Assembly (NCBI GenBank): GCA_964404095.1
Contig: CAYOIN010000001.1
Span: 1-55,262 of the forward strand
DNA length: 55,262 nucleotides
Direction of reading: 5' to 3'
Origin: an uncultured Gammaproteobacteria bacterium
GTDB lineage: Bacteria > Patescibacteriota > Microgenomatia > UBA1406 > GWC2-37-13
The notes under the pieces are model-generated. The model was given only the letters and a program-made list of their open reading frames with translations, ran no database searches and was not told the DNA's origin. Positions 3,517-9,991 of this stretch are shown here, one piece after another. Each line of letters starts with the position of its first letter. Within the stretch, counting starts at the first letter, position 1. Made by a program: the position numbers and the translations under genes.

Positions 3517-3592
3517 GGGCCTGTGGCGCAATGGCTAGCGCGTCTCTATGGCATAGAGAAGGTTAGGGGTTCGAGTCCCCTCAGGTCCACCA
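3517..3592 (+). tRNA. tRNA-Ala (anticodon GGC), CCA encoded
   Basis: Hand-folded cloverleaf. Acceptor GGGCCTG/CAGGTCC with a G3:U70 pair, D stem GCGC/GCGC, anticodon stem TCTCT/AGAGA with loop A-T-GGC-A-T, T arm AGGGG-TTCGAGT-CCCCT, 3-prime ACCA. Confidence 0.9.
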
Positions 3593-4039
3593 GATTTCTA
3601 TCTTCTTCATTCTTTACGCTCAATAGCTTGGGGAGAGGCGCTAAACTCGCGGTTCCAAATCCCTCTTCGAAGTCCTACTTGAACTGAAAGTGAGTCAACC
3701 TCAAAAAAATCTAGTTTTCTCATGTTTTCAGCCTCGAATTCCCTTCTCTAAATAATTAAGTTTTATTAAGTCCTTTACCGCAGTGGCTTTACGGTCTCGC
3801 TGGGCGACCTCTTTATCTTCACGAGCGATGAGCGCAATGTATCCGAAACTATAGATGCCATCAACGACCGGTAGGAGAGTACGTCGTCACGCCAGCGATC
3901 ACGATGGGTATGAAGAACAAGGTGCTCGATCGCATTTCATTTGGAGCAATTAAAGAGTTGGAAGACCTCTGTGATATGTCCGCCTAGAGTCTTGTTGAGA
4001 TTGCATACCTGTTTGGGGTGTCGGTTATAATATAAATAT

Positions 4040-4987
4040 ATGAGTTGGCGCATAATGACAAGCGGAATGGTTATCCCCGATTCAAAAACTGACAAGCTAT
4101 TTATAGAGGCGACAAAAAACGCTCCAAGCAAGTATGTTGAGGCTCTTGTAGGAAAGCTTGACTATCAATCTGAATCAAGTGTCTTATTCCCTAAGACGCC
4201 CCACATTGACCGTTGCCGTTTGTGTGGGGAAATCTGCAAGCTCACGGAAGAACACATTCCTCCAAAAGCTAGTGGGAACGTAAAAACATATAAAAATATC
4301 TACCTTGATGATTGGCTTGAAAAAAAGTTAGAAGCAGGCAAAGTGACGGGTAGAAGATTCCACCAAGGAGGAATAAGGGGCTACACCTTGTGTGGTAGGT
4401 GTAATTCGCTCACTGGAACGCGCTATGGCGGAGAGTACACCAAGTGGTCGAGAGCTACTTCTCAGGCTCTCTCTTCTCTAACATCGGAGCAGATCAGAGA
4501 CTTTGATAGTGCATCTAAACCGCTGGGCGTTGGAATAGAGTTCGTCAAAGTTAGGCCGGGTGCCTTTGTGAGACAGGTACTTTCTTTCATGTGTAGCTTG
4601 AGCGGAGACTGGGACATTGCAGGCCGACACCCTGAAATTAAAAGGATCGTTTTAGGGAGCGAATGTCTACCTCTGCCAAAAGGCTTGGATATTTCGATGG
4701 CTGTCTATTTAGGCCCAAGTGTAAGGATGATGGGTCCCCAACTGAGAATGAACTATCAAACGGGACATTGGAATTGGTGGATGGAGCTCGCCTACCCTCC
4801 CTTTTCATTTGTTATGAGTATAGCAAGTAGTCGACCCGTTCCCGACATGGGACTCCTCCTTAACGAGCTCGCATTGGTTCCCCCTAATAGCGTTGGGGGT
4901 TACTCGGGCGAATTCGATCTTGGATTCGGATGGTCTCCTTATCCGGGCGATTATCGATCTCGGTCCGCGCTAAAGAGCTCCTCATGA
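4040..4987 (+). CDS. HNH-type (HNH_5-like) nuclease domain protein with an uncharacterised C-terminal domain
   Basis: 315 aa. C59-x2-C62 ... E71-H72-IPPKASGN ... C118-x2-C121-N122 fits the zinc-finger HNH pattern CxxC..EHxxP..GG..CxxCN. The ~190 C-terminal residues have no motif I recognise. Confidence 0.6.
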   Translation: MSWRIMTSGMVIPDSKTDKLFIEATKNAPSKYVEALVGKLDYQSESSVLFPKTPHIDRCRLCGEICKLTEEHIPPKASGNVKTYKNIYLDDWLEKKLEAGKVTGRRFHQGGIRGYTLCGRCNSLTGTRYGGEYTKWSRATSQALSSLTSEQIRDFDSASKPLGVGIEFVKVRPGAFVRQVLSFMCSLSGDWDIAGRHPEIKRIVLGSECLPLPKGLDISMAVYLGPSVRMMGPQLRMNYQTGHWNWWMELAYPPFSFVMSIASSRPVPDMGLLLNELALVPPNSVGGYSGEFDLGFGWSPYPGDYRSRSALKSSS

Positions 4988-5040
4988 TTTCAGTTAACCC
5001 GCAGATAAAGATCCTTATCGTGGGAAGATCATTTTACTTA

Positions 5041-5069
5041 TTGACAATTTTTTCCCCACCATTTAGTAT
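5041..5069 (+). promoter_or_regulatory. Sigma-70-like promoter (TTGACA-17 nt-TAGTAT)
   Basis: TTGACA 5041-5046, a 17-nt spacer, TAGTAT 5064-5069. The predicted TSS is near G5076/5077, with no ORF downstream. Confidence 0.5.
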
Positions 5070-5075
5070 TTAAGT

Positions 5076-5259
5076 GGACACAATCAATCTGGCGTCTTTT
5101 GACTCAGAGGGTGGGAAGCAATCGTAGATTGTGTCCACCCCACTCTCGGAGTTAACAGACGCCTTTTTGATACCCCGTCTATTCGCGTAGCGAATAAGCG
5201 TGCGGGTACAGAGACGTATACGTGAGTATTAACAAACCCGCAAAAAAATGCGGGTTTTT
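5076..5259 (+). ncRNA. Candidate structured small RNA (~185 nt), family unknown
   Basis: Bounded by the promoter at 5041-5069 and the intrinsic terminator at 5234-5259. Contains a 23-bp helix (5091-5115/5139-5163), a competing perfect 12-bp pairing (5074-5085/5127-5138) and a hairpin at 5180-5196. No ORF of 60 aa or more. Confidence 0.45.
5234..5259. terminator. Rho-independent terminator, potentially bidirectional
   Basis: AAACCCGCA-AAAAAA-TGCGGGTTT stem-loop. It is followed by a T-run (5255-5259) and preceded by an A-run. Confidence 0.6.
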
Positions 5260-5530
5260 GTGGTTTTAGGGCACATTTACATATCGATAGCGGTCAGAGA
5301 GCGTAGGAACGGGATTAAGAGATCATAAAAACATAACGATAAGGAGGGGTTATCAATTTTTATGATTGAGAGGTGATGAAGAGTATGCGCGTAATAATTT
5401 GGGTAATTAAAAAACCCGCCGACGACCTATACATCCTTGAAAATGGGGTATGGCGTAAGCGGGCTTAACAAACAGCAAGCGTAGGATAGCACTTCCTACG
5501 CTTTGTGACCGTTAAATAAGATCAAGATAA

Positions 5531-5603
5531 GCGCCTGTAGCTTAGTTGGAAAAAGCAATTCCATGCTAAGGAAAAGATCAGAGTCCGAGTCTCTGCAGGC
5601 GCG
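5531..5603 (+). tRNA. Atypical tRNA-like gene: anticodon GCU (Ser AGY) on a class I (short variable loop) body
   Basis: Acceptor GCGCCTG/CAGGCGC, D arm GCTT-AGTTGGAAA-AAGC, anticodon arm (A)TTCC-ATGCTAA-GGAA(A), 4-nt variable region AGAT, T arm CAGAG-TCCGAGT-CTCTG, discriminator G, no encoded CCA. Flanks CAAGAT (5523-5528) and ATCTTG (5605-5610) extend the acceptor helix. Confidence 0.6.
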
Positions 5604-5886
5604 CATCTTGCTCTTATCAACGTTTAGAGCCTTCCAGCAAGATATTTTGTAAAAGAGCTTGTTCGGGTCAATATTCTAGCACGTAAAAATCCGCCGGTCA
5701 ACTCTTGGGTGTGTGCGTTGTACACATTGGGCATAATTTCATGTTACATAGGTTGTGATTTTGAGTCAAGCCAATTGTTCAAGTAACCCCTTGTGATACA
5801 ATTTGAGGGTAATTGAGAAGGCGCTTACCAAAGCTCAATACATACTCTTGAATCTGGTTCCAACTTTTAGTGGCAGTGTCCACCGG

Positions 5887-6531
5887 CTAAGAATTTTTTG
5901 CTTGGAGCGTTATGAGATTGTTCCATCGTTCGTCGCCCCGCAGCCTCTCTTCGAATGCACGAGCCCTCCGTTCCCAGGGAGTTCTGCGATAAAAATCATT
6001 AGTGACGAAACTTATCATGGCGCTCGCTCCCACCACCTCTGTAATTCCGCTCAGCACAATCAGTCCGCTCGCGGGCACGCTTGTTGCGAGATGAATTATC
6101 GGGAAGGCCACCGCTCCTGGGAGGAGGACGAATCCTTGCATAGCGCGGTCTACAAGTCTTGTTCTCATTCGCGTATTGTCGATTAAATGTTTAAGCTCAT
6201 GCTGCATGACCCCGTCCGGTCGATCTTTCAGAAAGTTTGACGGAGTAATTCCGCTCTGAATTTTCCAAAGCGGGTCACACGCGATAGTCGCAACAGTTCC
6301 ACACGCTAAGCCAAGCACAGAAGGATCGTTTAGTAACCATCGCTGGAGTCGAACTGTCAGTTTCTCTAGTTTTTTTTCAGGCATACCATACTCCAATAAA
6401 AGCCTTGCAACCTTATCAGCATCAACGCTGACGTTGTATGGGACGTCTGCTTCAAGTAGTTCGGGGTGACGCTGAACTTTAATTGTCGTTGTTCGTAGTT
6501 CGGGGCGTTGTGACAACTCAGATCGAGACAT
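5887..6531 (-). CDS. Hypothetical membrane protein with HExxH (HELKH) metalloprotease-like motif
   Basis: 214-aa ORF. HELKH is followed by hydrophobic segments (GFVLLPGAVAFPIIHLATSVPASGLIVLSGITEVVGASAMISFV). I recognise no further family signature. Confidence 0.5.
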   Translation of the reverse strand: MSRSELSQRPELRTTTIKVQRHPELLEADVPYNVSVDADKVARLLLEYGMPEKKLEKLTVRLQRWLLNDPSVLGLACGTVATIACDPLWKIQSGITPSNFLKDRPDGVMQHELKHLIDNTRMRTRLVDRAMQGFVLLPGAVAFPIIHLATSVPASGLIVLSGITEVVGASAMISFVTNDFYRRTPWERRARAFEERLRGDERWNNLITLQAKNS

Positions 6532-6592
6532 AAGTCGTATATTTTAGCATTATTTGCTACAATATAGTTCTTCTAACCTCGGACTGTCACAT

Positions 6593-6666
6593 GGGCCCCT
6601 AGCTCAACTGGTTAGAGCAGTAGCCTTTTAAGCTATTGGTTCTGGGTTCGAGTCCCAGGGGGCTCA
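6593..6666 (+). tRNA. tRNA-Lys (anticodon UUU)
   Basis: Acceptor GGGCCCC/GGGGCTC, D arm GCTC-AACTGGTTA-GAGC, anticodon arm GTAGC-CTTTTAA-GCTAT, T arm CTGGG-TTCGAGT-CCCAG, discriminator A. CCA is not encoded. Confidence 0.9.
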
Positions 6667-9884: not shown

Positions 9885-9991
9885 GTAATTTAGTATACAT
9901 TTTCTGTTACTAGATTACGCACTGCGAATTACGGATTGCGTATTCGTTCGCATGGTATTATTCGCAAGATCCAATGGAGAACGGTCTGGTG

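Follow-up and report, generated by a model that had tools for sequence, protein, structure and literature searches.

What is a complete class I transfer RNA with a serine anticodon doing in a genome that already encodes an ordinary tRNA for the same codons? The question is posed by a 73-nt gene (positions 5531–5603, plus strand), hereafter the GCU tRNA, on contig CAYOIN010000001.1 of assembly GCA_964404095.1, from an uncultured bacterium placed in the Patescibacteriota. The window, that is, the whole 55,262-nt stretch of DNA analyzed, is contig C1 of this genome (G000; 815 kb in 35 contigs, 93% complete), which carries 43 tRNA genes, four of them in the window according to ARAGORN. An earlier note on this DNA had suggested a glycine-type body and had raised recoding as one option. 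Our comparisons lead to a different answer: judged by its sequence, the GCU tRNA is an Arg(UCU)-type tRNA with a U34>G change. With moderate confidence, we regard it as a genuine Arg(UCU)-derived tRNA whose anticodon shifted from UCU to GCU, carried as cargo by the remnant of an integrative element at the 3' end of tRNA-Ala(GGC), predicted to decode serine codons as arginine if matured and probably produced at a low level or only under some conditions.

The cloverleaf of the GCU tRNA is not degraded. ARAGORN annotates it as a 74-nt tRNA-Ser(gct) at 5531–5604, and the Rfam tRNA model RF00005 matches 5531–5603 over its full length (1–71) with 58.9 bits (E 3e-10 in the window; gathering score 29), which ranks 24th among the 43 tRNAs of the genome, whose scores range from 43 to 74 bits. 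The stems have 7, 4, 5, and 5 bp, with G1-C72, C2-G71, and G3-C70 in the acceptor and G53-C61 in the T stem; U8, A14, G18G19, A21, U33, A37, and A58 are all present around the anticodon G34C35U36. The D loop is AGUUGGAAA, the variable loop consists of the 4 nt AGAU, and the T loop reads UCCGAGU, hence the C at position 55. The discriminator is G73, and CCA is not encoded, with CAT following instead. Thus, the sequence, ARAGORN, and Rfam bear out what the earlier note had seen here, from the class I fold with its conserved positions and 4-nt variable region to C55, the A27-A43 mismatch, G73, and the missing CCA. Twenty of the 21 stem pairs are intact, A27/A43 being the sole break, and the T stem is fully paired even though it is wholly different from that of the nearest Arg(UCU) tRNA. 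An anticodon stem of 4 bp, with 27-43 unpaired, occurs in 5.6% of bacterial tRNAs (PMC13092985). The minimum-free-energy fold is 6.0 kcal/mol more stable than the cloverleaf, which puts the GCU tRNA at rank 39 of 43, but four native tRNAs fold equally badly or worse, so this gap is uninformative.

The GCU tRNA is not needed to read serine codons, nor does it look like a serine tRNA. Four class II tRNA-Ser genes of 88–93 nt, all with long arms, are encoded in the genome, including a 93-nt tRNA-Ser(GCU) at C7:5290–5382, which makes the short GCU tRNA supernumerary. The main determinant for seryl-tRNA synthetase (SerRS) is the long class II variable arm, and this enzyme does not read the anticodon. 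The GCU tRNA shares the GCU anticodon and G73 with tRNA-Ser but cannot count as one without the long variable arm, and the note was right to set its 4-nt variable loop apart from ordinary bacterial tRNA-Ser, of which all four native examples are class II.

The codons themselves point the same way. AGY (AGC and AGU) accounts for 17 per 1000 codons in the genome, and when the AGY codons of the VirB4/T4CP genes in the window were compared with five orthologues from genomes of the same genus that are without the island described below, 46 of 60 aligned positions were Ser; the others were Asn, Gly, Lys, Thr, Ala, and Gln, and none of the 60 was Arg. In the HNH-like protein encoded upstream of the GCU tRNA, AGY codons at conserved Ser positions are also AGY in a 46%-identical homologue. 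Given the native class II tRNA-Ser(GCU) and the alignment of AGY with Ser, never with Arg, there is no recoding in this genome; that option of the note is rejected on the basis of the tRNA inventory and of the conservation of AGY positions.

Where, then, does the body come from? A covariance model built from the single sequence 5531–5603 (R1) was run against the genome itself and against about 300 related genomes, 150 from the order and 150 from the class. Within its own genome, the GCU tRNA scores 108.5 bits against this model and is followed by Arg(GCG) (59.8), Asp (59.5), and Arg(CCU) (58.4), while the Gly tRNAs reach 48.9–51 bits. Across the related genomes, 35 matches score 63–74 bits; the loci read were the best 15 of these 35 (66–74 bits), all of which are tRNA-Arg(UCU), the remaining 20 scoring 63–66 bits. 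Identity between the GCU tRNA and these 15 genes is 69–77% overall and 66–77% with the anticodon loop masked. Under the same masking, Arg(UCU) genes take the first 11 places among 87 class I tRNAs, with Gly(GCC) at 58%, a comparison biased by the fact that the Arg(UCU) loci had been retrieved as best R1 matches. The acceptor stem does not differ from that of the Arg(UCU) tRNA of genome G146, and the 3' half of the anticodon loop, like the anticodon stem, matches the Arg(UCU) sequence of the relatives.

The nucleotides on which charging depends fit this ancestry. The bacterial identity set for arginyl-tRNA synthetase (ArgRS) comprises A20, C35, U/G36, and A/G73 (PMC9976931), rules that derive from Escherichia coli, Thermus thermophilus, and similar bacteria rather than from the candidate phyla radiation (CPR), and the GCU tRNA has all four (A20, C35, U36, and G73). 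The D-loop sequence GGA, in which A20 directly follows G18G19, is found in this genome only in the five Arg tRNAs, in Pro(CGG), and in the GCU tRNA. The anticodon GCU reads AGC/AGU and thus is not an arginine anticodon, for which NCG or YCU is needed; each of its bases nevertheless occurs in native Arg isoacceptors, G34 in GCG, C35 in all, and U36 in UCU and CCU. An ArgRS with the Arg_tRNA_synt_N domain is encoded at C3:23415–24707. Given the identity bases, the D-loop-reading N-terminal domain of this enzyme, and the presence of the same anticodon bases in native Arg tRNAs, arginylation of the GCU tRNA would be expected. The Arg(UCU) identity of the best R1 matches and the retained Arg identity set together replace the glycine reading with that of an Arg(UCU) body carrying U34>G.

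The gene sits on a defined insertion. To the left, tRNA-Ala(GGC) (3517–3592, plus strand; ARAGORN and synteny) ends in CAGGTCCACCA (3582–3592, plus strand), which forms the left direct repeat and the insertion junction. It is followed by Module A (3593–5885), a 2.29-kb insertion that holds the HNH-like gene, features resembling non-coding RNAs, and the GCU tRNA, and that closes with a degenerate copy of the tRNA-Ala 3' end, CAGTGTCCACCG (5874–5885, plus strand), as the right direct repeat. A second accessory block, Module B (5886–6551), carries an open reading frame (ORF) of 214 amino acids with an HExxH motif (5887–6531, minus strand), and tRNA-Lys(UUU) (6593–6666, plus strand; ARAGORN and synteny) forms the right flank. 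The borders of both modules and the repeats are drawn from synteny and metagenome contigs. Among relatives of the same genus, in which the neighbouring VirB4 protein is 96–98% identical (G004 and G002), the spacing between tRNA-Ala(GGC) and tRNA-Lys(UUU) is 54 nt in G004 and 45 nt in G005, against 2,959 nt (3593–6551) in the window, whereas G002 and G003 have ~870 nt of unrelated filler between the two tRNAs. In the latter two, a second tRNA-Ala(GGC) 3' end lies ~100 nt past the gene (L041:2940–3100 in G002 and L042:2640–2750 in G003), with ~750 nt of the unrelated filler beyond it. A tRNA-Ala 3' end repeated directly at the joint, with second copies in G002 and G003 too, is what integration at the 3' end of a tRNA gene typically leaves behind, and it marks the Ala–Lys spacer as an integration hotspot in the genus.

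Public metagenome contigs show the same borders in natural variants. The stretch is present in runs of eight studies (22 runs listed). On a contig of run X13, position 3592 is joined to 5886 exactly at the repeat, so that 3593–5885 is missing and the HExxH gene is kept; on a contig of run X19, 3591 is joined to 6551 and the whole 2,959-nt island is missing. Module B is thus absent from G004, G005, and the X19 contig and retained in the X13 variant. One run of a separate study contains 4022–5608 without any difference from the window. In G000, the island is single-copy, and the inverted repeat that flanks the GCU tRNA is found nowhere else in the genome. The location in an accessory segment, as proposed in the earlier note, is therefore confirmed by both synteny and metagenome contigs.

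From these elements, a course of events can be proposed. A small integrative element, of which a remnant is left, would have inserted at the 3' end of tRNA-Ala(GGC), bringing the GCU tRNA with it. If the gene is transcribed and its product trimmed and supplied with CCA, the host ArgRS would charge it with arginine, and G34 would then let it compete with the normal tRNA-Ser(GCU) for AGC and AGU codons, leading to Ser>Arg mis-decoding.

How much of this tRNA would be made is a separate matter. Its flanks can form a leader-trailer helix, the 5' arm (ATAAGA-T-CAAGAT, 5516–5528, plus strand) being separated from G1 by AA and the 3' arm (ATCTTG-C-TCTTAT, 5605–5617, plus strand) starting one base past G73; the pairing consists of 6 bp, one mismatch, and 6 bp, with a calculated duplex energy of about -11 kcal/mol. 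The flanking complementarity recorded by the earlier note at 5523–5528/5605–5610 is therefore real and extends further than had been claimed. Of the 42 tRNAs scored in this genome, none forms a stronger leader-trailer duplex, although the margin over tRNA-Ser(GCU) on contig C7 is slim (-10.9 vs. -10.2). Upstream, a TATAAT box with at most one mismatch is found 3–25 nt from 34 of the 43 tRNA genes, most of the rest being downstream members of clusters, while the best match of the GCU tRNA has two mismatches. The absence of such a -10 box, C55, the 4-bp anticodon stem, ends buried in a 12-bp helix, and the lack of conservation together indicate that the output of the GCU tRNA in this genome is probably low or conditional. 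None of the 22 listed runs is an RNA run; the two marked "RNA?" are limited to the flanking tRNA genes and probably represent DNA. As an observation on the tRNA set as a whole, a perfect TATAAT stands 7–23 nt upstream of the mature 5' end in 23 of the 43 genes; leaders would accordingly be very short, and each tRNA or small cluster would have a promoter of its own.

The GCU tRNA appears to have no direct relatives, but it does have counterparts on other mobile DNA. BLAST of the gene with its flanks against 60 relatives gave short chance matches only, and blastn against phage and plasmid collections gave none. Exact 20-mers of the anticodon arm had no match in viral contigs and five chance matches, none of them a tRNA, in genome and metagenome contigs. 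Viral contigs were also searched with a pattern that asks for the D loop of Arg-type tRNAs, the loop UGCUAA, and, from there to the T loop, the distance typical of class I; it also fixes the T loop as UUC. This pattern retrieved Arg-type tRNA(GCU) genes on 26 viral contigs (16 distinct sequences); an Arg-type tRNA(ACU) is as frequent, on 26 contigs (L084–L109; 17 distinct sequences), and Arg-type tRNA(UCU) is found on at least 119. A literature search turned up no account of tRNA(GCU) genes of the Arg type.

Two features of these viral loci bear on the GCU tRNA. First, 4 of the 16 GCU and 2 of the 17 ACU sequences, and none of the 116 listed UCU ones, have an exact complement of the anticodon arm, at least 11 nt long, no more than 700 nt away (p = 8e-5); the complements span 11–13 nt in the four GCU cases and 12–15 nt in the ACU loci L094 and L103. 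No such antisense partner is apparent here: the longest exact complement within 700 nt of the GCU tRNA is 6 nt, a scan of the window allowing up to three mismatches in 15 nt of the anticodon arm found only one chance-level site, at 9943, and pairing of either strand of the island with the anticodon arm or the whole tRNA stayed within that of shuffled sequences. Second, leader-trailer duplexes of -8 kcal/mol or lower occur in 6 of 13 viral GCU tRNAs (one tandem artefact removed) vs. 3 of 113 UCU tRNAs (p = 2.5e-5), a comparison that was defined after the feature had been seen and whose UCU controls are those among the matches listed; the viral ACU and the CPR Arg(UCU) tRNAs each have 1 in 15. 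With R1, viral GCU tRNAs score at most 61.7 bits and viral UCU tRNAs 63.1 bits among the matches listed, vs. 63–74 bits for chromosomal CPR Arg(UCU). Being no closer to the viral GCU than to the viral UCU tRNAs, both of which fall below CPR Arg(UCU), the GCU anticodon appears to have arisen independently here. Taken together, these comparisons suggest that the GCU tRNA is a stand-alone, independently arisen member of a recurrent class of Arg-type tRNA(GCU) on mobile DNA.

In addition to these genes, a single tRNA-like sequence recurs in 12 viral contigs (L058, L061, L063, L064, L066, L068, L070, L072, L076, L079, L080, and L082); it combines a D arm of the Arg type with a GCU anticodon arm and a T arm, lacks a pairable acceptor stem, and is not called by ARAGORN.

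The interpretation of the GCU tRNA as a genuine, potentially active tRNA has to be weighed against several points. The covariance model found no GCU orthologue in the ~300 related genomes, and a pattern scan of 400 genomes of the phylum matched in G000 only; with no orthologue found, nothing shows selection on this copy. It is the sole carrier of a UCC T loop, and thus of C55, among the 43 tRNAs, and C55, A27/A43, and G15/U48 could equally be read as decay. No integrase is encoded in the 2.29-kb Module A, so that the element looks like a remnant. The slim lead of its leader-trailer helix, the limits of the viral comparisons, and the origin of the ArgRS identity rules outside the CPR, all given above, tell in the same direction.

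The strongest alternative is a dead relic, which we consider a serious possibility although not the more probable one. According to this explanation, the element brought in an Arg(UCU) tRNA that was redundant with the Arg(UCU) and Arg(CCU) tRNAs of the host and decayed neutrally in an integrase-less island, its RNA being either not made or not matured. Six sites that are invariant in the 15 Arg(UCU) genes are indeed changed (U20a>A, G22>A, C32>A, U34>G, U43>A, and U55>C), U43>A being the change that breaks pair 27-43, and a near-consensus -10 box is missing, unlike in most tRNA genes of the genome. The gene is a singleton in the phylum sample, and the X13 variant demonstrates that Module A is dispensable. 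Moreover, an arginylated reader of AGY would be expected to do harm and would be tolerated best if it was inactive already. Against decay stand the loss of just one pair, at a position that is open in 5.6% of bacterial tRNAs, and the mid-range general tRNA score. A32 is present in two native tRNAs of the genome, and two relatives that encode TruB, G131 and G089, have C55 in their chromosomal tRNA-Thr(UGU) (L028:2074–2146 and L029:2074–2146), with the T loop UCCGAAU. In the genus itself, TruB_N (PF01509) had no match in four genomes (G000, G003, G004, and G005, which include a 100% complete genome and a single-contig one), whereas it is present in 14 of 14 control genomes and in two genomes of a sister genus; with TruB not found, the constraint on U55 may be relaxed. 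Contigs of an independent study carry an identical sequence, and the anticodon shift and the flanking helix recur on unrelated mobile DNA, namely, the viral contigs. Irrespective of this comparison, 42 of the 43 tRNAs of G000 keep U54-U55-C56 despite the lack of a TruB_N match.

At the opposite extreme, the GCU tRNA could be a working, stand-alone member of a repeatedly arisen, hitherto undescribed class of mobile-element tRNAs that, once arginylated, would read AGY and deliberately mis-decode Ser as Arg, perhaps as a device for addiction, exclusion, or takeover, with maturation gated by the leader-trailer helix or, in other copies, by an antisense partner RNA. We consider such a role rather unlikely.

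The neighbourhood offers further features. The HNH_5-like gene of Module A (4040–4987, plus strand) encodes 315 amino acids of an unnamed family. Relative to the genome, it uses AGY 2.7 times and AGR 3.3 times as often, an AGN-rich codon usage that fits a foreign element, to which a tRNA-Arg(UCU) would formerly have been of use. The family comprises ~110 clusters, occurs in 4 of 401 genomes of the phylum, sporadically in the CPR, and on one 60-kb viral contig, and is marked by the invariant residues C59, C62, E71, H72, N80, C118, C121, and N122 and by a conserved C-terminal half of ~190 amino acids without a known domain. A near-identical 310-amino-acid form (P0001) is encoded on a 3,111-nt Logan contig. 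The earlier note had placed the tRNA beside a nuclease gene, which needs correcting: 543 nt lie between the end of the HNH-like gene and the tRNA downstream, and no tRNA accompanies its homologues in six other contexts (G041, G061, G326, G573, and two viral contigs).

Directly upstream of the GCU tRNA, a 10-bp hairpin with a T-rich tail (5477–5503, minus strand) scores as a terminator on the minus strand only, and a promoter-like site lies at 5701–5673 (minus strand). Minus-strand transcripts from the convergent HExxH gene or from the 5701–5673 site may thus cross the GCU tRNA in antisense and end at 5477–5503. Farther upstream, 5362–5468 contains a strong Shine-Dalgarno sequence, AAGGAGG, in front of a 4-codon ORF that overlaps a 30-codon ORF (5376–5468); the latter is hydrophobic and has AGU as its third codon. 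Behind these ORFs comes a hairpin of 9 perfect bp (5478–5502), an arrangement already noted as attenuator-like. Between the HNH-like gene and the GCU tRNA, the ORF-free stretch 5041–5259 is bracketed by a promoter-like TTGACA-17-TAGTAT and a terminator-like hairpin (5234–5257), and its complementarity to the GCU tRNA is no more than expected by chance. Elsewhere in the genome, a tRNA-Ile with the anticodon UAU is encoded at G000:C4:38748–38821 and only two CAU tRNAs are present; AUA may thus be decoded without a lysidine tRNA.

These surroundings invite the proposal of a tRNA-shaped RNA with no part in translation: a decoy or inhibitor of a tRNA-targeting enzyme, a processing or insulator element, or a recombination target. 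The 12-bp helix does extend the acceptor stem, as is enriched in the viral GCU class, the anticodon loop (A32 and G34) and the T loop (C55) are altered, and the island holds a nuclease-like gene together with other structured non-coding stretches. We nevertheless judge this explanation improbable. No linked partner protein or RNA was identified: the HNH family is without a tRNA in six other contexts, neither protein of the island has a PADLOC or NCBIfam match, the only PHROGs match is a weak one to HNH (E 0.055), and no neighbouring RNA is complementary beyond chance. In addition, all ArgRS identity nucleotides are kept, which a pure decoy would not need. Farthest from the evidence, and in our estimate hardly credible, is the idea of a Gly(GCC)-type body changed by C36>U or of a short-arm tRNA accepting Ser and signalling AGY recoding or an unusual SerRS, even though G73 is shared with tRNA-Ser and G1-C72, C2-G71, G3-C70, and C35 with tRNA-Gly(GCC), for which these bases together with U73 and C36 form the identity set: U73 and C36 are precisely what the GCU tRNA lacks, the Gly tRNAs of the genome, at 58–59% identity, fall below Arg, Asp, and Lys as well as far below the Arg(UCU) genes in R1 score, and, as seen above, all native Ser tRNAs are class II and AGY aligns with Ser, Asn, Gly, or Thr, never with Arg, in island-free genomes.

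If the GCU tRNA is a genuine Arg(UCU) derivative, its interest lies in what it says about the origin of such molecules. Natural tRNAs in which charging identity and anticodon disagree are rare, and they are the raw material of both code change and regulated mistranslation. In this case, the shift from Arg(UCU) to GCU took place inside the CPR, from a local tRNA-Arg type, on a defined, strain-variable insertion, and, taken together with the viral-contig copies, it appears to be no isolated accident but a change that recurs on mobile DNA. Were the tRNA charged with arginine, it would provide mobile elements with an RNA-only means to perturb the host proteome; were it uncharged, it would illustrate that inventories of tRNAs and arguments from codon usage can be led astray in reduced genomes by a gene annotated as "tRNA-Ser".

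Its closest known counterparts are the chromosomal CPR tRNA-Arg(UCU) genes of the argU type (for instance, G146:C25:4933–5006 and G183:C1:259407–259480), with which it shares the class I fold, an identical or nearly identical acceptor stem, G18G19A20, the AUUCC/GGAA anticodon stem, and U33, C35, U36, A37, A38, and A/G73. Unlike these, it has G34 instead of U34, and so would read AGY instead of AGR, and it differs further in A20a, A32, A43, C55, and the 4-nt variable loop, in the lack of a TATAAT box of its own, in the 12-bp leader-trailer helix, and in its location on an insertion. With the Arg-type tRNA(GCU) genes of viral contigs, it has in common the Arg-type body, the GCU anticodon, the short variable loop, residence on mobile DNA, and the leader-trailer helix; unlike them, it derives from CPR-type Arg(UCU) and has C55 and A32, and unlike 4 of the 16 viral loci, it is without a partner RNA, its longest complement of 6 nt contrasting with 11–13 nt there.

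Among systems characterized elsewhere, the tRNAProX of Streptomyces and Kitasatospora is reportedly a dual-identity tRNA shown to be charged, together with the dedicated synthetase paralogue ProRSx, and to mistranslate. The GCU tRNA resembles it in being a natural bacterial tRNA with identity and anticodon at odds and with predicted mistranslation of sense codons, but it has no dedicated synthetase. The nev-tRNAs of nematodes are Ser- or Leu-type class II bodies with other anticodons. The allo-tRNAs (Mukai et al. 2017) are said to be built likewise from Ser- and Leu-type class II bodies. Both share with the GCU tRNA the mismatch between body and anticodon, in the opposite direction. Metazoan mitochondrial tRNA-Ser(GCU), which has no D arm and is served by a co-evolved mitochondrial SerRS, also combines the GCU anticodon with the absence of a long variable arm; the GCU tRNA, in contrast, is a full cloverleaf with Arg identity, and its bacterial host possesses a normal tRNA-Ser(GCU) as well. 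The GCU tRNA thus adds a partner-less case from the CPR to two kinds already known, the anticodon-shifted or dual-identity tRNAs and the element-borne tRNA-Arg.

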